NCBI GenBank assembly: GCA_965204375.1
Contig: OZ241986.1
Coordinates: forward strand, 1,312,001 to 1,376,000
Length of the DNA: 64,000 nucleotides
Source: Candidatus Latescibacterota bacterium
GTDB taxonomy: Bacteria; Latescibacterota; UBA2968
Direction of reading: 5' to 3'
The position numbers were made by a program, and so were the translations under genes. This document shows, piece after piece, positions 2,625 through 11,018 of the stretch; within the stretch, counting starts at the first letter, position 1; the number at the start of each line of letters is the position of its first letter. The notes below the pieces were generated by a model that saw nothing but the letters and a program-made list of their open reading frames with translations, was not told where the DNA came from and made no database searches.

Positions 2625-2648
2625 GGGGATTATGTAGAATAGTGTCCA
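2617..2648 (+). repeat. Left TSD (2617-2624) plus left TIR (2625-2648)
   Basis: gaaaaaat|ggggattatgtagaatagtgtcca read directly. Confidence 0.95.
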
Positions 2649-2661
2649 TAAGAAAAACGCC

Positions 2662-2886
2662 TTAATTGTCGCACTGTATTCCCAATTTGCTGACAATGCA
2701 GTTATAGCATTCTCGCGCTTTGAGTATGTCGTCAAAGATGAAGACTTTTTTCTCTCTCTCTGATTTGGGCGTGAAGTTGATAACAACCGATTCGCCATCC
2801 AATGTTATCTCGTCTAACTCATGAGAGTCAATGCGAAATACTTCTTCTTTTGTCTCGCTGATTTTCACACGTATCAAGTTTCCCAT
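2662..2886 (-). CDS. Small hypothetical passenger protein (74 aa)
   Basis: ATG 2886 with AGGAGA RBS; divergent from the transposase; pattern similar to the 4058-4306 product. Confidence 0.6.
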   Translation of the reverse strand: MGNLIRVKISETKEEVFRIDSHELDEITLDGESVVINFTPKSEREKKVFIFDDILKARECYNCIVSKLGIQCDN

Positions 2887-2933
2887 CGTTGTTTCTCCTG
2901 TAAAAAATACTGAACAAATGTATAGAAAATTGC

Positions 2934-2962
2934 TTGATTTCAAGGGTTTATAATGCTATCTT
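2934..2962 (+). promoter_or_regulatory. Putative sigma70 promoter of the transposase
   Basis: TTGATT-N17-TATCTT with a TGn extension, ~180 nt upstream of ATG 3145. Confidence 0.5.
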
Positions 2963-2998
2963 AATGGCAGATATAAACCCTTATTTTTGTAGGGGGAT

Positions 2999-3084
2999 AA
3001 AAAAAAGAAGGCTTGCGCTTTTGGGAGCGCAAGCCTCTAAGTGGAGAAACAGGCAAATCGTCGAACCTCCCGTATTCCTCGCAC
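2999..3084 (-). ncRNA. Putative ~85-nt antisense RNA to the transposase leader
   Basis: Minus-strand TTGTCT(3119-3114)-N17-TATCTT(3096-3091); perfect 11-bp hairpin 3009-3036 followed by a U-tract on the minus strand. Confidence 0.5.
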
Positions 3085-3144
3085 AATTCAAAGATAAGGT
3101 GTGTTGAGCCAAAAGACAACATCTTTTTTTTGTTGAGGTGTGCC

Positions 3145-4083
3145 ATGGCTACCAATGCACCAGGCATGCATTTCCGTAAGGGCATGTCTCTCATCCAGCT
3201 ATTCAAGATGTTCCCGGATGATGAGACAGCCGAGAAGTGGTTTATTCACACGCGCTGGCCGGATGGTATCGCTTGCCCGCGATGTGGATCCGTCAACGTT
3301 CAGGAAAAGGCGATACACCCAACAATGCCTCACCGATGCAGAGACTGTCGTAGATATTTCTCTGTCAAGAAAGGCACAATGATGGAATGTTCAAATGTAG
3401 GTTATCAAATATGGATAATCGCCATTTACCTCTGGACAACAAACCTGAAAGGTGTTTCGTCCATGCACCTGCACCGCGATGTAGATGTGACACAGAGAAC
3501 CGCATGGTTTCTTCTGCACCGGATCAGACACGCTATGACGCCTGAACAGGTCGAACTGTTTGACGGCACAGTAGAGGTCGATGAGACGTATGTCGGAGGG
3601 AAGGAAGGGAATAAGCACGCGAAAGACAAACTGCGCTTAGGGGGCACGGCGGGCAAAACGCCAGTCGTTGGTGCGAAGAATAGAGAAACCAAACAGGTGC
3701 AGGCAGAAGTGTTTGAGGATGTAGATGAAGATGCGATAAATCAGTTTATTGAGGATTGTGTTGAAAAAGGCGCGACCGTGTACACAGACGGGTCACACGT
3801 CTATAACGCTCTGGAGGGGTATGAACACGATAAAGTGATTCACTCACGCGGTGAATATGTGAGAGGAGATGTATCAACAAACGGGATCGAGTCTTTTTGG
3901 TCGATGATAAAACGCGCAATCATGGGGGTGTATCACAAAATCAGCAAAAAACACTTGGGGAAGTATGTCGCTGAGTTTGTGGCACGGCAAAATATGAGAC
4001 CGCGAGATACCATCGACCAAATGAAACTGATTGCGGAATGCTTTGAAGGGAAAAGGCTTAGGTATTGTGAGTTGGTTTCATAG
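3145..4083 (+). CDS. tnp: IS1595-family transposase (Zn ribbon + DDE)
   Basis: CPRCGS...CRDC zinc ribbon; VEVDETY, YTDG, NGIESFWSMIK and EFVARQN motifs; RBS GAGGTG before ATG 3145. Confidence 0.95.
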   Translation: MATNAPGMHFRKGMSLIQLFKMFPDDETAEKWFIHTRWPDGIACPRCGSVNVQEKAIHPTMPHRCRDCRRYFSVKKGTMMECSNVGYQIWIIAIYLWTTNLKGVSSMHLHRDVDVTQRTAWFLLHRIRHAMTPEQVELFDGTVEVDETYVGGKEGNKHAKDKLRLGGTAGKTPVVGAKNRETKQVQAEVFEDVDEDAINQFIEDCVEKGATVYTDGSHVYNALEGYEHDKVIHSRGEYVRGDVSTNGIESFWSMIKRAIMGVYHKISKKHLGKYVAEFVARQNMRPRDTIDQMKLIAECFEGKRLRYCELVS

Positions 4084-4306
4084 CATCAAAGTTAAAGCGA
4101 TGGGCAAGTTTCGTGAATTGGCGTTTGGCCTCTTCGAGTAAATCAAACTCAAAGTGTTCTTTTTCTCCATTTGGTGAATGAAACTCAATCTCAACAGGAA
4201 AGCCTTCCTTGTTCCAGTCTATATCAATGTGTATAGAGAACACATGATCAAGGTAAACTATCACGAATTTTCCATCTGAGTTTTCTCCGGAAATAAAATT
4301 TTCCAT
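4058..4306 (-). CDS. Small hypothetical passenger protein (82 aa)
   Basis: AGGAGG RBS; 3' end overlaps the transposase 3' end. Confidence 0.65.
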   Translation of the reverse strand: MENFISGENSDGKFVIVYLDHVFSIHIDIDWNKEGFPVEIEFHSPNGEKEHFEFDLLEEAKRQFTKLAHRFNFDAMKPTHNT

Positions 4307-4320
4307 GGCAAAAGCCTCCT

Positions 4321-4482
4321 TTAATTTATCCTTATCTCAATTTCTGGTTGTTGCACCCAATAGACCCATATTGGACTTGTAGATGCAGGGCCACCATGTC
4401 GATTTACCTGGTTAGAATTGTCTGGTTGCTTGTCCGGCGGATTTGAGTTGACGGGTATATCTAACTCTGATATTTTATTCAC
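4321..4482 (-). CDS. 53-aa Pro/Asn-rich peptide (not in ORF track)
   Basis: GTG start after AAGGAG; MNKISELDIPVNSNPPDKQPDNSNQ...; first 25 aa are 21/25 identical to the 7008-7268 product, with mostly synonymous differences. Confidence 0.6.
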   Translation of the reverse strand: MNKISELDIPVNSNPPDKQPDNSNQVNRHGGPASTSPIWVYWVQQPEIEIRIN

Positions 4483-4559
4483 GGCTTTTCTCCTTTTTTA
4501 CGGGGGAGGAAGGTGGTATTTTATTCATGAGGCCGTGTTTACCGCACGGCCTTTTTAAT

Positions 4560-4706
4560 TTACCTAAACAGGCTTGCAAGCGCAACCCCGAAAATGACGA
4601 GAAGAACACCACTCATAACAGCCATACGACGGTTGTGTATTTTCTCCTCGTGGTCCAGTTTTTGTTGCCACTGTTCTCGGTATTCTTTCCACTCCTCGTC
4701 TGTCAT
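4560..4706 (-). CDS. 48-aa charged-helix plus C-terminal TM peptide (not in ORF track)
   Basis: ATGA overlap with the protease stop; MTDEEWKEYREQWQQKLDHEEKIHNRRMAVMSGVLLVIFGVALASLFR. Confidence 0.6.
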   Translation of the reverse strand: MTDEEWKEYREQWQQKLDHEEKIHNRRMAVMSGVLLVIFGVALASLFR

Positions 4707-5653
4707 GGCGCACCGTCCACAACAATGTGTATATGCGTGTGGTCATGCACATGCTTGAAAACTGGTTGGCCGATTGCGGGCTTTGTCAATACCGGATGGG
4801 GCATCTGTGCTTTGTTGTAGTCCACTACATGTCCCAAATCGTGCAACATACCGAGCGTAACTTTGCTGATGACGCTTTGTGGGGCTACGTATGGTTGCAT
4901 TATATCCCACATCATTTCGGGATACTTCCAGTGTGTGGTCTCCATTTCCATTGGAATACGCAAATCAGGAATAGCGAAAGAAAGTTTTTCGCCCAAATGG
5001 TAAAGGACTTCTCTATACCCCTGGACGCCGTGTGCCCCACTGTAATACTTTACACTGGATACCACTTCCAAATATTCTTTGATATACACGTCAGAAAAGC
5101 CGAGTGCGTGTCCAATCTCGTGAAGGATTACTGCCCGTTTTTGTGCCTGTGTCAAAGTGTTCAGGTAGTCATACAGCCACACTTCAGCATAAAAGGGCAA
5201 CCCACCCATTGTCGGAGAACGGGCGACGGTAAGGTGCGTGGTCGCCACCGCGTTAGGATTTGTGGGCACTTTCCAAACAAACTTCACCAATAAATCATCC
5301 ACACGCGCCACTGGCGGAATGGCCGATATATGCGAATATGTAAAGGCCGGCATATCGGGCAACCCGCCTACAATCACGCCTTCCCACTGATCCCTCGCCC
5401 AAATTATGGCGTTGGATACTTCAAGCGGAAATGTACCCGGGTTGTCTAAATACACGCCAATATCAAAACGTTCTTGAGGAACAGGTACAGTCTGTGCTGA
5501 TTGCAAAGGCTCTGGCGTCTCATTCACCTGTACCTGTGTTGGCGCAGGCACTTTCGCACACGCCATGAGAACTGTGAGAATAAAACAAGTTGCCCCTAAT
5601 TGTAAAAGTGTGTAAATTGGACGCTTATTCCCGCCTGTGAGTATTGCACTCAT
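4703..5653 (-). CDS. Zinc metalloprotease, leishmanolysin (M8)-like, probable lipoprotein
   Basis: HEIGHALG, distal THW, Met-turn DIMQP, SKVTLGMLHDLG; hydrophobic signal ending LMAC. Confidence 0.75.
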   Translation of the reverse strand: MSAILTGGNKRPIYTLLQLGATCFILTVLMACAKVPAPTQVQVNETPEPLQSAQTVPVPQERFDIGVYLDNPGTFPLEVSNAIIWARDQWEGVIVGGLPDMPAFTYSHISAIPPVARVDDLLVKFVWKVPTNPNAVATTHLTVARSPTMGGLPFYAEVWLYDYLNTLTQAQKRAVILHEIGHALGFSDVYIKEYLEVVSSVKYYSGAHGVQGYREVLYHLGEKLSFAIPDLRIPMEMETTHWKYPEMMWDIMQPYVAPQSVISKVTLGMLHDLGHVVDYNKAQMPHPVLTKPAIGQPVFKHVHDHTHIHIVVDGAP

Positions 5654-5777
5654 AGAGAAACCCTCTCTGTGTGTGGTGATATTCCGGCGGATTGCCGTGT
5701 GCTGCTTCTCCCGGACTGCGACCAACAGGTAACGGGGACAGCACACGGCGCACCTTATAGGGGTGATAAAATGAAAA

Positions 5778-5984
5778 CTACTGACCGGATTCTTTTTTTA
5801 GCTCTTGAATGGCCCCAAGAACCCCATTTACCAAATCCATTGCGTCTTCCGGAGACACCCGATAGACATGAAAACCGGGAATTGTTTTTTGATCTAAGTC
5901 TTCCGATATGGCAATGTCCAGCATCTGCTTGTTGTGGACCAAATAAATCCTAAGTCCACCTTCTCCAACTGGTTCTTGTTGCAT
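5778..5984 (-). CDS. Small hypothetical protein (68 aa), first gene after RNA leader copy 1
   Basis: ATG 5984 preceded by GGAAGG; MQQEPVGEGGLRIYLVHNKQ... Confidence 0.55.
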   Translation of the reverse strand: MQQEPVGEGGLRIYLVHNKQMLDIAISEDLDQKTIPGFHVYRVSPEDAMDLVNGVLGAIQELKKESGQ

Positions 5985-6322
5985 AAAAATTATCCTTCCC
6001 CATAAAAAATTCCCGCAGTTATCTGGCGGTGGTGTTCCGCGCTCCGTTATGGAGCCGGGCAGAGATACCACCTCACGCAGACATACTGCGGGAAAAGTCC
6101 TACCTATTTGCCAAGATCGGGTAGCTAATCCGTTCTTTGTAGGTTGGCTATTCTATTCAGTAGGCTACCCGACGAAGCGGGTCTGCCGTAAGGTGGTATC
6201 AAAAAGAAAGCCCTGACGGTTCCATCAAACTGTTGATGAAGCGTCAGGGCTTCGAGTTTGTCCGTCAGGGCTAAAGCGATATTCGTAATGTAAGACAAAA
6301 TTATCAACAATCTGATGGATGC
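5985..6322 (-). ncRNA. Structured RNA leader, copy 1
   Basis: Leader 6303-6319 complementary to 6221-6237; hairpin 6209-6272 plus U-tract; closed multi-stem domain 6064-6200; G-U pairs work only on the minus strand; homologous to copy 2. Confidence 0.75.
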
Positions 6323-6326
6323 TGAT

Positions 6327-6354
6327 AATTTAACTTATCTAACCTGAGTGTCAA
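6327..6354 (-). promoter_or_regulatory. Putative sigma70 promoter, copy 1
   Basis: TTGACA-N16-TAAATT, positionally conserved with copy 2. Confidence 0.65.
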
Positions 6355-6377
6355 GATTTTTTGTATTTTATCTCCGG

Positions 6378-6397
6378 CACTATTCTACATAATCCCC
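6378..6397 (-). repeat. Internal third TIR (right-end orientation)
   Basis: cactattctacataatcccc, identical to the outer 20 bp of the right TIR. Confidence 0.9.
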
Positions 6398-6481
6398 TTC
6401 GATGGTCTGTGCAGACGCCATTGTTTTGTAAATATAGTCTTTTAATTCTTCTATTTCACGTTCAATATCGTATCTCTGCAT
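6398..6481 (-). pseudogene. 5' part of a small gene cut by the internal TIR
   Basis: MQRYDIEREIEELKDYIYKTMASAQTIE runs straight into the TIR (reads GDYVE* inside it); same position relative to RNA copy 2 as 5984 is to copy 1. Confidence 0.6.
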
Positions 6482-6838
6482 AAAAAAATCCGCAATAATC
6501 TGGTGAGTGGGTGCGACACCTTACATATTCGTGCAAGGTGTCGGGCAGAAGCACCACTTACGCAGACATACTGCGGAAACGTCCCTACTTATTCGTCCAG
6601 ACCGGGGAGCGACCCCAACCTTTTTGACAGACTATTGTATTGGGTAGGATACCCGACGAATCGGGCTGCCTAAGCGGTGCTATTTATTTTTCACACATAA
6701 AAAGCCCCGGCGGTTCCGTCAAACTGCTGATGAGGATTCAGAAAAAATCCTCACAGTTTGTCCGCCAGGGCTTTGTAAAAAAAGCGCATTCAAAATAGAG
6801 AAAAGATCAAACAAGCTTATCAGCAGTTTGACGGATGC
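6482..6838 (-). ncRNA. Structured RNA leader, copy 2
   Basis: Leader 6819-6835 perfectly complementary to 6715-6731; hairpin 6701-6774 plus U-tract; domain 6550-6681 with CCCGA-UUCG-UCGGG. Confidence 0.75.
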
Positions 6839-6842
6839 GTAT

Positions 6843-6870
6843 AATGTAACCTTTCAGAGATAGATGTCAA
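6843..6870 (-). promoter_or_regulatory. Putative sigma70 promoter, copy 2
   Basis: TTGACA-N16-TACATT. Confidence 0.65.
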
Positions 6871-7007
6871 GGTTTAATCCTCATAATACTCAAATTTTCG
6901 GTTGCCCATCACAGAGTAGTTTGGTAAATTAAAAGCCGTGCAGTGGAGAAAGCCACCACACGGCAATTGCGATTTTCACCCCAACCTTCCAAGAAAGGGG
7001 AAAAAGC

Positions 7008-7268
7008 GTGAACAAGATACCAGAACTGCATATACCAGTCAACCCAAATCCACCGGACAAACCGCCAGACAATTCTAACCAAGATGGGTATTTTTCATGT
7101 GTAAAAGAAAAGAAAGGGGGTGATCTCTCAATGAACAAAACAATACGCATCACGCTCATGATCGTGGTTGTCTTTGTCTGCACACTCTTTTGGACGAAAA
7201 CGATTGATAATCTCGAAGCAGGAGTTATCATCGGTAAATCCAAAATTGGCAAAGCTACACTGAGATAA
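7008..7268 (+). CDS. 86-aa protein: Pro/Asn-rich N-module plus TM segment; internal in-frame start at 7131 (45 aa)
   Basis: GTG after AAAGGGG; second RBS AAGGGGGTGAT before ATG 7131; hydrophobic ITLMIVVVFVCTLFW. Confidence 0.55.
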   Translation: MNKIPELHIPVNPNPPDKPPDNSNQDGYFSCVKEKKGGDLSMNKTIRITLMIVVVFVCTLFWTKTIDNLEAGVIIGKSKIGKATLR

Positions 7269-7317
7269 TCACACCCCTCTCCCCGTGTTGATCGACATTC
7301 CCGGCGTCAACACTATT

Positions 7318-7349
7318 TGGACACTATTCTACATAATCCCCGAAAAAAT
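7318..7349 (-). repeat. Right TIR (7318-7341) plus TSD (7342-7349)
   Basis: tggacactattctacataatcccc|gaaaaaat. Confidence 0.95.
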
Positions 7350-7677
7350 GGGTGAGGAGGTAACGGTGCTTCTCTTCCGCACGGTGAGGGAGTTGCTGAT
7401 CAATGTCGTCAAGCACGCCCGGGCACACAGCGTGAGGGTGTCGATCCGAAAAGATGGTAGCCGTATAAGGATTGAGGTCGAAGATGACGGGGTCGGATTT
7501 GACACTTCGCAAATCGATTTTGGCCGCACACCCGGCAAGGGGGGATTTGGTTTCTTCAGCATCCGGGAACGTCTAAATTTTTTGGGGGGAAATTTTCAAG
7601 TCGAATCCGAACCCGGCCAGGGCACCCGGGCCGTCCTGACGGCACCGCTGAAGCAGAATGGGCACCCCGGGACGTAA
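7350..7677 (+). pseudogene. Histidine kinase C-terminal HATPase_c part
   Basis: RELLINVVKHA, EDDGVGFD, GGFGFFSIRER and ESEPGQGT boxes; rejoins in frame with 1213-2624. Confidence 0.9.
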
Positions 7678-7856
7678 ACTGGCAGGAGGGAGAAGGGGCA
7701 TGCTGCAAAGGCTCATCCATTTCCCGATGTCAATTCAGGTATATGGAAGTACACTGCTGGGGTTTTACCCCATTGCGCTCTTTCTTTTGCATCCTTATTT
7801 TGACTCTACAAACGCGCGCTGTTGAAGCAGAATGGAGAATCCAAAGGAGATGTGCC

Positions 7857-8510
7857 ATGAGCATCCGGATTGTTCTGGCGGATGACCACAAGATCCTGCG
7901 TGCCGGGCTGCGTGCCATGATTGTGGAACAACCCGACATGGAGGTGGTGGGAGAGGCCGAGAACGGGCGGACGGCGGTAAATCTGACCCGTGAGCTGTCG
8001 CCCGATGTGGTCATCATGGATATCGGTATGCCCGATTTGAACGGTATTGAGGCCACCCGCCAGATCGTTGCCGAGGTCCCCAGTGTTAAGATCATAGGCC
8101 TGTCGATGTATTCCGACAGGCGGTACGTGGCGGGCCTGTTCGGCGCGGGCGCGTCTGGCTATCTGCTGAAGGATATCGAGTTCGAGGAATTGATCGAGGC
8201 CATTCAAGCCGTAGTTGAAGGCCAGGTCTATGTGAGTTCCGGGGTGACGGGCATTGTGATCGAAGACTATGTACACCGCGTATCGGGCACAAAAAATGGT
8301 GGTATTTCTGCGCTGACACCCCGGGAACGCGAGGTGCTTCAACTCCTGGTCGAAGGCCGATCCACGAAGCAGATTGCTTATGAACTTGGAGTGAGTATTA
8401 AGACCGTTGAATCACACCGTCACAGAGTGATGGAAAAACTGGATCTTCACAACATCGCCGATCTCACCAAATATGCGATCCGCGCAGGGCTGACATCCCT
8501 CGAAGTCTGA
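7857..8510 (+). CDS. NarL/LuxR-family response regulator
   Basis: LADDH, IMDIGMPDLNG, YLLK receiver motifs; LTPREREVL...KTVESHR HTH. Confidence 0.95.
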   Translation: MSIRIVLADDHKILRAGLRAMIVEQPDMEVVGEAENGRTAVNLTRELSPDVVIMDIGMPDLNGIEATRQIVAEVPSVKIIGLSMYSDRRYVAGLFGAGASGYLLKDIEFEELIEAIQAVVEGQVYVSSGVTGIVIEDYVHRVSGTKNGGISALTPREREVLQLLVEGRSTKQIAYELGVSIKTVESHRHRVMEKLDLHNIADLTKYAIRAGLTSLEV

Positions 8511-8552
8511 TCGCGCAGGGGCGCTGTGGACTTACCAGCAGGAGGTTACGCA

Positions 8553-11018
8553 ATGGGCAAGAGACGATTTGGTCTGTGTTCAACCGGGATGCTGGGAGCT
8601 TTGTTTATCCTGTCTCTCTGTTTTGCGCTGTCTGAGGCATCTGGGGCAAAGGAGGAGGTGCAGGTGCTGGAGGAGCGCATTAAGGCAGACCCAGACAGAC
8701 CGGGATTGTGGCTTGAGTTGGGGTATGCCCGCTTAAAGGCGGGAGAACTGAAGGGGGCCGAGAAGGCGTTTCTGACAGCGGAAAAAAAGGGGGAAGGTGA
8801 GATCGATGCGAGGGCTTACAACGGCCTGGGGTTGGTCTATGCGGCGAAACCAAAGCGGCTTCAGGCGGCTGTCGATTATTTTCAAAAGGCGCTGAGGAAG
8901 CAGCCGGATTACGCTGAGGCGCATTTCAACAAAGCGCAGACGTATTATCTCCACAACTGGATGTCGCATGCGATTCAGGCGGCAAAGGATGCGCTATCGG
9001 TCGATTCTACGTATGTGGCGGCACAGCAGTTGATTGACAAGTGCCGTGCAATCTCGGCGGAGGATGTGGAGAAATCAAAGAAGATGTACGAGAAATACCT
9101 GACGTCGGACCCGGAGGACTTAGAGGGCTGGTTGGAATGGGGTGGTTTGGCCGTAGCCGAAGGGAATTACGATCAGATTCTGACACGCCTGCCGGTTGTG
9201 ATTCGAACGAAGCCGGAGTGGCTGGACCTGTATCCGATTGTGGCACAGGCGTTTTGGAAGAAGAATTTGTTGGATCAGGCGTGGATCGGCTTTAGCAAGT
9301 ACGCGGAGGGACTGGAAGACGAAGAACGCGCACTGTACGAAGATGTGAGTCTGATTATGTGGGGGGATGAAGCCCGTCGGTTCCAGCGGGCGTCCGCAGA
9401 GGAAAAGCGGGCGATTGCAGCGCGTTTTTGGTCAGAACGGGATCCGGACTATAATACGCCGATCAATGAGCGGTTGTTGGAGCACTACCGCAGGGTATGG
9501 TATGCGCGGACTTATTTTTCCCGTTATAAGCAGCCGTGGGATCGCCGTGGGGAGGTCTATATCCGCTATGGAGAACCGGATCACCGAAGTCGTTCCAGGC
9601 AGCCAAGCCCGCCTCCTTCGATGTCTGTAAACGCGGTGAAGGAACGGTTTTTCAATATGCTCTACAGGGATCACTACATTTTGCTCGCCATGGGCGGTGG
9701 ATCGGAAATCCCGTACCTGGATCCCCTGGAAATAGATGAGGGGCTTCTGCCCGAGGATCAGGCGCTTTTGATGGAGACCGAGGGCGGATTGTACCAGGAG
9801 GCAACCACGATGAGGGGTGTGCAGTGGTTTGACGCGGTCACGGGCGGGCTGACCGGGTCGTTGGTGGGACCGGTATTTCCCATCCGCTCTTACGACCCCG
9901 GCGCTGTCTTCGGGCTTTATCTGCCCGTGGGAGCCAGCGATTTCAGCCTTGTGCCGTGGGAGTCGTGGACATATACGGGGGTGGCTGGGGGTATTGTGAT
10001 CGACTTTACCAGAGAGAGCGGCAAGATGGGGTTCGATTATGCGCCGATTCCAGAGTTGGGCAAGACTCCGGGGTTGCGGCATGGTACACAGGCCGGCATC
10101 GACGATATCCGGGCTATGAACGCCTTTACGCAACGGGCGCCGATATCGATTGCGCGCAGGTCGTTTGGGGCAGTGCCGGATCGGTATAAGGTTTCCGATG
10201 AGGACTTCCCCTTAGACTTCTACTTCGACGAGGCCAGGTTTCGAGGGCGGGCTGATACGGTTCGCGTAGAGGTCTATTACGGTGTGCCGATGTTCGAGGC
10301 GACTTACTCGCCAGCCGACAGCGCGACGGGACTGAGAGCGGCCTGCCGGATCGCGCTTGTCGGAAAAGCAGATGGAAAGGTTTATCGGTCCGGAAACGAA
10401 CTGGCCTATCTGGAGCCGGGAGATCGGACCGGGGGAACCGGGTTTATCCCTCAGGCGATCGCTGTGAATGTGCCTCCCGGTGAATATACCCTGGATGTGC
10501 GGATGGAGGACAGACTGAAGGGAGAGGTCGGTGCCTATCGCAAGCAGGTGATCGCAGAGCCGTATCCAGCAGGGCCGCTGAAACTGAGTGATATCCAGTT
10601 GGCCTGGAAGATATCTGCTGGGGATGAGCTGGGGCCGTTCTCCAAGAATGGACTGCAGGTGGTGCCGATGCCGACGCGGCTGTACAAAAAGGGACAGCCT
10701 GTTTTTATCTACTACGAGATCTACAATCTCAAGCGAAACGCGTTTGGGATGACCAGCTATACGGTGGAATACACGATTCGTTCGGGCAAACCGCCCGGGG
10801 TAATTTCGCGGATTTTTCGGGCGTTCAGAGACGAAGAGCCGGGCGAAAAGGTCGCGGTGGGGCAGGAGCAACTCGGCAGGCAGGAGACGCAGCACAGTTA
10901 TATCGAACTCGATTTGAATGAGGTGGTGCCCGGGGAGGTCGTACTGACGGTTTTGGTGAAAGACCTCAACGCGGACGAGACGGCTTCCAGTGAGGCGAGG
11001 TTCGAGATCAAGGAGTAA
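8553..11018 (+). CDS. TPR + GWxTD-domain protein, exported
   Basis: Signal peptide, TPRs, FWSERDPDYNTPINERLLEHYRRVWYAR and PWDRRGEVYIRYGEPD. Confidence 0.85.
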   Translation: MGKRRFGLCSTGMLGALFILSLCFALSEASGAKEEVQVLEERIKADPDRPGLWLELGYARLKAGELKGAEKAFLTAEKKGEGEIDARAYNGLGLVYAAKPKRLQAAVDYFQKALRKQPDYAEAHFNKAQTYYLHNWMSHAIQAAKDALSVDSTYVAAQQLIDKCRAISAEDVEKSKKMYEKYLTSDPEDLEGWLEWGGLAVAEGNYDQILTRLPVVIRTKPEWLDLYPIVAQAFWKKNLLDQAWIGFSKYAEGLEDEERALYEDVSLIMWGDEARRFQRASAEEKRAIAARFWSERDPDYNTPINERLLEHYRRVWYARTYFSRYKQPWDRRGEVYIRYGEPDHRSRSRQPSPPPSMSVNAVKERFFNMLYRDHYILLAMGGGSEIPYLDPLEIDEGLLPEDQALLMETEGGLYQEATTMRGVQWFDAVTGGLTGSLVGPVFPIRSYDPGAVFGLYLPVGASDFSLVPWESWTYTGVAGGIVIDFTRESGKMGFDYAPIPELGKTPGLRHGTQAGIDDIRAMNAFTQRAPISIARRSFGAVPDRYKVSDEDFPLDFYFDEARFRGRADTVRVEVYYGVPMFEATYSPADSATGLRAACRIALVGKADGKVYRSGNELAYLEPGDRTGGTGFIPQAIAVNVPPGEYTLDVRMEDRLKGEVGAYRKQVIAEPYPAGPLKLSDIQLAWKISAGDELGPFSKNGLQVVPMPTRLYKKGQPVFIYYEIYNLKRNAFGMTSYTVEYTIRSGKPPGVISRIFRAFRDEEPGEKVAVGQEQLGRQETQHSYIELDLNEVVPGEVVLTVLVKDLNADETASSEARFEIKE

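Follow-up and report, generated by a model that had tools for sequence, protein, structure and literature searches.

Transcription attenuators such as trp-type leaders and riboswitch platforms place an intrinsic terminator in a 5′ leader, together with an alternative fold that shares bases with it and has a similar energy. In Bacillus subtilis pyrG the pairing partner of the terminator is the very start of the transcript, and in the rep leaders of pT181, pIP501 and pAMbeta1 attenuation is driven by a counter-transcript, with a "preemptor" that keeps the terminator from forming. The small RNA sRNA-Xcc1 is associated with integrons and transposons; to our knowledge its function is unknown even in the organisms of its first description. 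In phage P4, an untranslated leader segment (seqA) is complementary to a downstream structured RNA, and the pairing of the immunity RNA CI is tied to premature termination (PMC4825925). According to the same source, the IsrK RNA of prophage Gifsy-1 has its own terminator, a fraction of transcripts reads into the downstream genes, the short and long isoforms share sequence able to interact, and IsrK acts on translation of the read-through mRNA (PMC4825925). Here we describe two leader–terminator modules in a Latescibacterota bacterium (assembly GCA_965204375.1, contig OZ241986.1, forward-strand positions 1,312,001 to 1,376,000). This whole 64-kb stretch is called the window; the coordinates of both modules are window positions read on the minus strand.

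Each module has a promoter, a 17-nucleotide (nt) leader and a long terminator hairpin whose 3′ side carries the complement of the leader. Both lie at inward-facing promoters inside a 4717-bp IS1595-family transposon, and they probably gate transcription into the transposon cargo of this uncultured, sponge-associated bacterium. We favour, at somewhat better than even chances, reading the module as a promoter with a bistable cis attenuator built on an intrinsic terminator. The anatomy, covariation, energetics and position relative to genes on which this reading draws are shown by the sequence analysis.

Leader–target pairing in the window and its relatives

In module 1, leader UCCAUCAGAUUGUUGAU (6319–6303) pairs with target AUCAACAGUUUGAUGGA (6237–6221) through 15 Watson–Crick and two G-U pairs. 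In module 2, leader UCCGUCAAACUGCUGAU (6835–6819) is a perfect 17-nt complement of target AUCAGCAGUUUGACGGA (6731–6715), a pairing that a repeat search lists as 20-nt inverted arms of 95% identity. Duplex energies are −24.6 kcal/mol for copy 1 and −31.2 kcal/mol for copy 2, and for each copy, 1000 dinucleotide-shuffled leaders and 1000 random genomic 22-mers were compared and not one formed as good a duplex. Between the copies, leader positions 4 and 13 change on both sides from A-U to G-C, and two more positions are G-U in copy 1 and Watson–Crick in copy 2.

In both copies the target comprises the inner-stem 3′ strand and the bulges on the 3′ side of a long hairpin, whose outer stem is GC-rich, 11 bp long and followed directly by a U-tract, as in an intrinsic terminator. 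In terminator 1 the 5′ part (6255–6272) holds the 5′ arm at 6272–6262 and the inner-stem 5′ strand at 6260–6255, and the 3′ part (6201–6219) holds the 3′ arm at 6219–6209 and the U-tract at 6208–6201; in terminator 2 the corresponding parts are 6754–6772 (5′ arm 6772–6762, inner strand 6760–6754) and 6698–6713 (3′ arm 6713–6703, U-tract 6702–6698). A simple terminator scan lacks both hairpins because its loop limit is 3–8 nt. In both copies the leader core recurs in the inner-stem 5′ strand, so that leader and inner strand compete for one target, and the bulge bases, being unpaired in the hairpin, offer the leader a toehold. A single base separates target from 3′ arm. The two 17-nt pairings, the two compensatory swaps and the overlap of the target with inner stem and bulges had all been proposed in a preliminary description of this DNA, and each was confirmed here. 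Copy 1 alone also has a second 5′ arm (6252–6238), recovered by repeat search and folding, which could build a shorter terminator with the same 3′ arm and is the arm taken in the unconstrained minimum-energy fold of that copy.

The promoters of both modules, TTGACA-16-TAAATT (6327–6354) and TTGACA-16-TACATT (6843–6870), match the consensus at 10 of 12 positions each, with a 16-nt spacer. In both, the leader starts 7 nt past the −10 hexamer and should thus be the extreme 5′ end of the RNA. At base 6310, contigs from four other public runs turn the U-G pair at leader position 10 into C-G, as in locus L009, a population variant that is consistent with the pairing. Around the presumed start site of module 1 lies a 12-nt inverted repeat (6331–6320 / 6309–6298), similar brackets were seen by eye in five close relatives, and a consensus scan places promoter-like hexamers on the opposite strand over both leaders (6301–6329 and 6817–6845); these features could be an operator or a divergent promoter.

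To place the module in a wider context, we searched its own genome, 61 related genomes (BLAST and a covariance model) and 151 genomes of the phylum (covariance model), and by pattern one genome per species of a public collection and a metagenome collection. Ten complete modules were found, in 7 of the 61 related genomes and all within one Latescibacterota genus. By sequence they form about five lineages: copy 1 with L009, copy 2, L010, L084, and a group of five relatives (L064, L070, L073, L074 and L081). The geometry is the same in all ten, with the leader 6–7 nt past the −10 hexamer and the end of the target 1–3 nt before the 3′ arm. Pairing between leader and target is strong in nine: five long pairings of −24.2 to −31.2 kcal/mol, matched by 0–1 of 1000 shuffles, and four bipartite pairings of 9 + 9 bp at −15.8 to −25.1 kcal/mol, matched by 0–5 of 1000 shuffles; of these four, only two also stand out against random genomic 30-mers. 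Locus L010 combines a different leader with a correspondingly different target, and in L084 leader, inner-stem strand and target are all altered in concert.

On alignment A6, which the covariance model had fitted to the pairing, the leader/target helix is 94.3% paired, 12 of its 17 pairs show two-sided changes, and four of five measures were unmatched by any of 500 shuffles. The terminator outer stem is 95.5% paired over the ten modules, two of its pairs with compensatory changes, and the hairpin tip differs between lineages. Most of the non-Watson–Crick pairs of the leader/target helix are G-U on the sense strand (12 in all), and the duplex is stronger on that strand in seven of nine modules; this bias towards the transcribed strand favours an RNA helix over a DNA repeat.

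Outside the ten modules, matches were of other kinds. Two metagenome pattern matches lie within repeat-protein coding sequence and were rejected as chance, and the sole match beyond the genus, in G075 at 38 bits, proved to be a plain terminator that lacks a leader. In L063, L068, L069, L071 and L072, hairpins with the same 5′ arm serve as terminators downstream of a structured RNA, in reversed order relative to the window and with no evident leader pairing. Rfam scans found no match to C4, IsrK or SeqA, either at 4000–9000 (E up to 1) or at 5990–6850 (E up to 10), and over the window and 16 related loci they gave sub-threshold noise apart from one weak match to sRNA-Xcc1. Judged by these scans, the module is outside every curated RNA family. 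Its carriers are transposons and defence-gene neighbourhoods in one genus of an uncultured phylum. In L079 and L081 the module is divergent from an AbiEi antitoxin gene, about 170 nt away, and in L081 an AbiEii toxin gene follows behind; in L078 and L080 the neighbouring open reading frame (ORF) looks PIN-like by eye and has no Pfam match. Large ORFs of 440–493 codons downstream in L078, L080 and L081 have no Pfam, NCBIfam or PADLOC match.

Folding landscape and the candidate cis attenuator

We folded the nine modules with intact pairing; pseudoknots lie outside what this folding scores. In nascent RNA that ends just before the 3′ arm, the minimum-energy fold holds the leader/target helix in all nine. 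At full length, folds forced to contain the terminator and folds forced to contain the leader/target helix are only 0.4–9.3 kcal/mol apart, in either direction. Length-wise folding of both window copies has the leader pair first with the end of the 5′ arm and move to the target once this emerges, the terminator prevailing only after the 3′ arm is complete. Spacer segments also swap partners between the two folds. In these models, the energy landscape is that of a kinetic switch.

The arrangement of genes bears on what such a switch would control. In L084 and L081 an ORF preceded by a ribosome-binding site begins 26 nt and 30 nt, respectively, past the terminator stem, so that the only promoter in view is the one upstream of the terminator. 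In the window, a structured RNA lies directly past each terminator, and the closing helix of RNA 1 begins right at the end of the U-tract. Neither in L084 and L081 nor in the window is there room for a promoter between the terminator and the gene or RNA that follows.

We propose that transcription from the sigma-70-type promoter would put the leader at the extreme 5′ end, ahead of a long terminator with an 11-bp GC-rich outer stem at the U-tract, a 3′-side bulge, a short inner stem and a variable tip. The leader, an extended copy of the inner-stem 5′ strand, would engage the bulge as a toehold, displace the inner stem and form a helix of 9–20 bp ending 1–3 nt before the terminator 3′ arm. If this helix formed before the 3′ arm emerged, the 5′ arm would be held in an enclosed loop, closure of the terminator would be slowed or blocked, and polymerase would read through; if the local hairpin prevailed, transcription would stop. 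Under such control would be the structured RNA, a small ORF and a metalloprotease in the window, and the ORF directly in relatives. The trigger could lie in the speed of the polymerase, in a protein or in an RNA. What we infer here is where transcription starts, that pairing leads to read-through, and that the choice is regulated.

Several specific triggers and partners were tried and rejected. A leader peptide is not indicated, since the 61-codon ORF at 6125–6310 is out of frame in copy 2. Discrimination against read-in transcription by an upstream complement that sequesters the leader finds no counterpart in the folds: the leader was never paired upstream, and with 15–100 nt of upstream sequence added the leader/target helix stays in the minimum-energy fold in eight of nine modules. 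For feedback by the downstream RNA, pairing with the leader was no better than shuffles (429, 324 and 493 of 500 as good). As for an antisense promoter within the leader, the plus-strand sites at 6301–6329 and 6817–6845 face away from it, and a consensus scan, the only search made for this, gave no other plus-strand promoter-like site over the modules. An integron attC-like hairpin or the ends of a miniature element, suggested by the bulges and the link to sRNA-Xcc1, were likewise set aside, as the flanking duplication is absent and the sequence looks unlike the core sites.

Among described systems, the module is nearest to attenuators in which an upstream preemptor or the 5′ end competes, as in pT181-type leaders and pyrG. 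With trp-type leaders and riboswitch platforms it shares the 5′-leader terminator and, by prediction, an alternative fold of similar energy that shares bases with it, here with the inner stem only, and with pyrG a competing segment at the presumed very 5′ end of the RNA. It differs from these attenuators in that we detected in it neither a leader peptide nor a tRNA, metabolite pocket or reiterative-transcription signal, and in that its competitor pairs with the inner 3′ strand and bulge and not with the arm adjacent to the U-tract. With pT181-type leaders it has in common a mobile-element location and an upstream segment opposing the terminator; in contrast to them, a consensus scan found no promoter antisense to the leader, no rep gene lies downstream, and the preemptor takes the inner 3′ strand of the terminator instead of its 5′ arm. 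We conclude that the module, real, conserved and covarying, forms a new family and is a candidate RNA switch, a probable variant of a known attenuation mechanism.

A number of observations weigh against an attenuator. The leader/target helix shares bases with the inner stem only and none with the outer stem, so that the two folds exclude each other only through the inner stem and through topology. By geometric reasoning, helix and outer stem together look sterically possible as a pseudoknot, and leader/target pairing may leave termination intact. Start sites, 3′ ends and read-through are all deduced from sequence, and the contigs of the one RNA-library run compared are those already present in the DNA run from its sample, which gives no evidence of expression. 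A sensor, ligand pocket, leader peptide or counter-transcript promoter was not found in the module. Only about five independent lineages stand behind the ten modules, and alignment A6 is biased to structure by its fitting. For the 9-bp pairings alone, 79–228 of 1000 random genomic 22-mers do as well. In L070 the pairing is lost (−5.0 kcal/mol, with 982 of 1000 shuffles as good). This locus (G010) combines the leader of the close-relative group with a copy 1-like target, which accounts for the loss, and by its sequence it looks like a recombinant or decayed copy.

The preliminary description had called the two folds mutually exclusive and inferred an attenuator in cis. Its exclusivity stands for the inner stem and bulges, which are contested, and falls short for the outer stem, which could coexist with the helix as a pseudoknot. 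The attenuator itself gains from the architecture shared by ten modules, the covariation, the nascent folds in nine of nine, the near-isoenergetic alternatives and the placement of the promoter, and has its weak point in the strict exclusivity with the outer terminator stem.

If the attenuator reading is true, a compact, sensor-less RNA switch serves as a portable "regulated promoter" cassette on transposons and beside defence genes. Three features set it apart from textbook attenuators, namely competition by the RNA's own 5′ end, a toehold in the terminator bulge and a possible pseudoknot topology, and these would recommend it as a clean model of how termination is controlled kinetically. In the window it stands in tandem with a second candidate switch, an sRNA-Xcc1-like RNA. 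We know of no cultured member of the Latescibacterota and of no regulatory RNA described from the phylum. Judged by title and the start of the abstract, the literature searched held nothing relevant on regulatory RNAs or riboswitches of Latescibacterota, and we likewise found no regulatory leader reported in IS1595 elements.

Stabilising, trans-acting and DNA-level alternatives

The possible pseudoknot raises the prospect that the module is no switch at all. It could be a small stable RNA, or a 5′ stabiliser of a read-through mRNA, its 5′ end lying in a helix stacked on the terminator stem and shielded from end-dependent decay while the terminator leaks at a fixed rate. The geometry suits this: the pairing takes the first transcribed bases and abuts the 3′ arm, as in a coaxial nicked-helix pseudoknot, in which one continuous 3′ strand is served by two upstream partner segments in swapped order. 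The P0 and P1 helices of the downstream RNA show the same swapped-order topology, and the failure to find a sensor fits as well. Against it, the leader mimics the 5′ strand of the inner stem, so that one of the two must be displaced, which is typical of switches; the spacer segments exchange partners between the folds, and the two folds are near-isoenergetic. We regard a purely stabilising role as improbable.

An equally small share of our confidence goes to an RNA acting in trans, in the manner of P4 CI or Gifsy-1 IsrK, to control immunity or dosage. The terminated hairpin would pair with nascent leaders of the same or sister copies and fix those transcripts in the terminating fold, or otherwise alter their fate, giving copy-number or immunity control of the transposon cargo. 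P4 CI and IsrK offer precedents (PMC4825925). Like P4 CI and the c4 RNA of P1 and P7, the module sits in a mobile element and has a leader complementary to a downstream structured RNA, a pairing that would here too be linked with premature termination; like IsrK, it is a mobile-element-borne RNA with its own terminator. The bulge keeps toehold bases of the hairpin unpaired, and cross-pairing between the window copies is strong (−20.2 and −27.1 kcal/mol).

Further support comes from a related, evidently active insertion sequence in the same genome, present as two 100% identical 3395-bp copies (L002, 4398607–4402001, and L003, 3520770–3524164), each with its own 8-bp duplication. In both, the same promoter, leader and 5′ arm lead straight into a 151-codon ORF, and a homologous hairpin follows past the ORF in reverse orientation, which leaves the leader an orphan without a cis target. 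Pairing of that opposite-strand hairpin with the orphan leader reaches −15.7 kcal/mol, a value equalled or bettered by 6 of 1000 shuffles. Separately, the 151-codon ORF has one membrane segment, the reverse hairpin has on the other strand a U-tract and what by eye reads as a promoter-like sequence, and the 5′ arm and far arm could close the mRNA through an 18-bp 5′–3′ helix.

The comparison with known trans-acting RNAs breaks down on several counts. The Rfam scans gave no match to C4, IsrK or others, and, in contrast to IsrK, the module shows no evidence of isoforms. P4 CI (with seqA, seqB and seqC) and c4 have two flanking complementary sites, whereas the module has one: no second such site was found in the 4.7-kb element, where the only sense-strand partners of either target within 2625–7341 are the two leaders, and no third complementary site was found in that interval, the next partner reaching −16.6 kcal/mol or weaker. 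In contrast to CI and c4, structured RNA and terminator are one and the same in the module, cis pairing has the energetic advantage, the carrier is an IS1595 transposon and not a phage, and no covariance model matches. Each released RNA would carry its own leader, and energetically that leader is the preferred cis partner of the target. We also considered, and rejected, the idea that the two copies have orthogonal specificities: pairing with the other copy costs only about 4 kcal/mol relative to cognate pairing, and the compensatory changes therefore do not set the copies apart in specificity. The hairpin tip, finally, varies between lineages. The preliminary description had offered a released hairpin acting in trans on the leader as its other possibility, and on these grounds the likeness to CI was not sustained.

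A bolder form of the trans idea, to which we give slightly less credence still, treats the module as the cis half of an RNA-immunity circuit of the transposon. Its hairpins would act in trans on the leaders of sister copies, the transposon would thereby gauge its dosage and silence its cargo or halt its movement, and the insertion sequence with the orphan leader would be a "split" form of the circuit. If true, RNA-based immunity would for the first time be described for a DDE insertion sequence of the IS1595 family, in an uncultured phylum.

A DNA-level inverted repeat (an operator pair, a recombination site or the decayed ends of a miniature element, with one protein reading both arms) is very unlikely, for while arms read by one protein would co-vary too and the extra inverted repeat around the start site and the promoter-like hexamers of the opposite strand would suit it, the arm mismatches are mostly G-U on the transcribed strand with the sense duplex the stronger, protein binding can hardly explain the three-way relation of leader, inner strand and bulged target or the fixed distances to the −10 box and terminator arm, no target duplication surrounds the repeat, and the inverted repeats of the transposon are unrelated in sequence.

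Transposon, cargo and downstream RNA

Returning to the setting of the candidate attenuators, the transposon has split a histidine kinase gene, whose HisKA_3 part ends at 2637 and whose HATPase part begins past 7341. The 4717-bp insertion is bounded by 20-nt inverted repeats, the left at 2625–2644 (plus strand) and the outer right at 7322–7341 (minus strand), and by an 8-bp target-site duplication, GAAAAAAT, at 2617–2624 and 7342–7349. The transposase gene (3013–4083, plus strand) matches Pfam DDE_Tnp_IS1595 at 1.5e-38, with a zinc-ribbon domain, and NCBIfam transpos_IS1595 at 184.8 bits against a cut-off of 75. An IS1595-type DDE transposase with an N-terminal zinc ribbon, terminal repeats and an 8-bp duplication are thus all present, as expected of the IS1595 family. 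Around the five close relatives, no IS1595-type element was found within the sequence examined.

The 20-nt end repeat has three exact copies in the window (starting at 2625, 6378 and 7322), where none is expected by chance. The internal one (6378–6397, minus strand) ends an inner element that contains module 1; this module begins 23 nt inside it, counted to the −35 hexamer of promoter 1. Module 2 lies in the extra 944 bp between inner and outer repeats. In the four other public runs, two of which are one sample and share a flank, the contig match ends at 6397/6398 and continues into three different flanks, which marks a real mobile-element terminus; the leader and terminator region of copy 2 (6698–6950) has zero cover in these runs. 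No separate duplication accompanies the inner element, so the whole unit moved together via the outer end.

All remaining parts of the modules' surroundings are on the minus strand. Upstream of promoter 2 stands an ordinary intrinsic terminator (6935–6964). Leader 2 (6819–6835) and target 2 (6715–6731) are followed by structured RNA 2, sRNA-Xcc1-like (6482–6681), with an 11-bp closing helix P0 and its own U-tract terminator, and then by a 33-codon ORF (6380–6481) that runs into the internal repeat and stops there, probably a truncated cargo gene. Leader 1 (6303–6319), target 1 (6221–6237) and the adjoining second 5′ arm (6238–6252) lead to structured RNA 1 (6004–6200), also sRNA-Xcc1-like, in which a 14-bp P0 closes around the core and a 3′ extension forms another U-tract terminator, in competition with both P0 and an internal hairpin. 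The first ORF past RNA 1 has 68 codons and a Shine–Dalgarno sequence (5781–5984) and matches no family. Next comes the cargo gene for a putative secreted or lipoprotein zinc metalloprotease (4703–5746) with a HEIGHALGF motif; its matches to Peptidase_M8, Zincin_1 and metallo_LGF are all weak and below curated cut-offs, and beyond them PADLOC, NCBIfam and Pfam gave nothing for the cargo proteins. Elsewhere in the transposon, a 91-nt inverted repeat (4409–4499 / 6991–7081, 81% identity) overlaps two small ORFs with similar starts (MNKI.EL.IPVN...) and a promoter-like site at 7042–7014.

The structured RNA is more widespread than the leader–terminator module. About 190 nt long, it is present at BLAST level in 32 of the 61 related genomes, counting those in which the RNA core is covered; a count of 34 would add two that match the transposon end only. 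Its closing helix has 11–14 bp in all 19 sequences compared (−16.7 to −27.2 kcal/mol), with many compensatory changes. Applied to the same 19 sequences, RNAalifold gives sRNA-Xcc1-like helices of 20 pairs, seven of them with compensatory changes. The 5′-strand sequence of the closing helix recurs in the 3′ extension, which builds the second U-tract terminator, and this terminator also competes for the 3′ strand of that helix. The RNA thus has the appearance of a separate riboswitch-type element.

No Rfam family matches the structured RNA at threshold. The best score against sRNA-Xcc1 (RF02221) was 28.9 bits (E 0.54), compared with a gathering threshold of 53, in one of 16 related loci, and the Rfam scan gave no sRNA-Xcc1 match in the window itself. 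The apparent likeness lies in the predicted architecture: a long-range helix, an inner helix with AAUACAAUA and GAAUA loops and a small distal stem occur in the same order, and both RNAs are carried by mobile elements. The differences are about twice the length, the extra closing helix of 11–14 bp and the competing terminator. From its sequence and predicted folds, the RNA looks like an undescribed riboswitch-type or protein-binding leader.

In the window and in L004, L005 and L010–L035, the structured RNA usually has its own promoter and is followed by a terminator or a ribosome-binding site. An invariant CUGCCCGG segment allows a possible pseudoknot or alternative pairings. In L098 and L099 (G016) the RNA belongs to a 2767-bp repeat whose two compared copies are 100% identical; the repeat lacks the IS1595-type end motif, and it is thus a different mobile element with the same RNA cargo.

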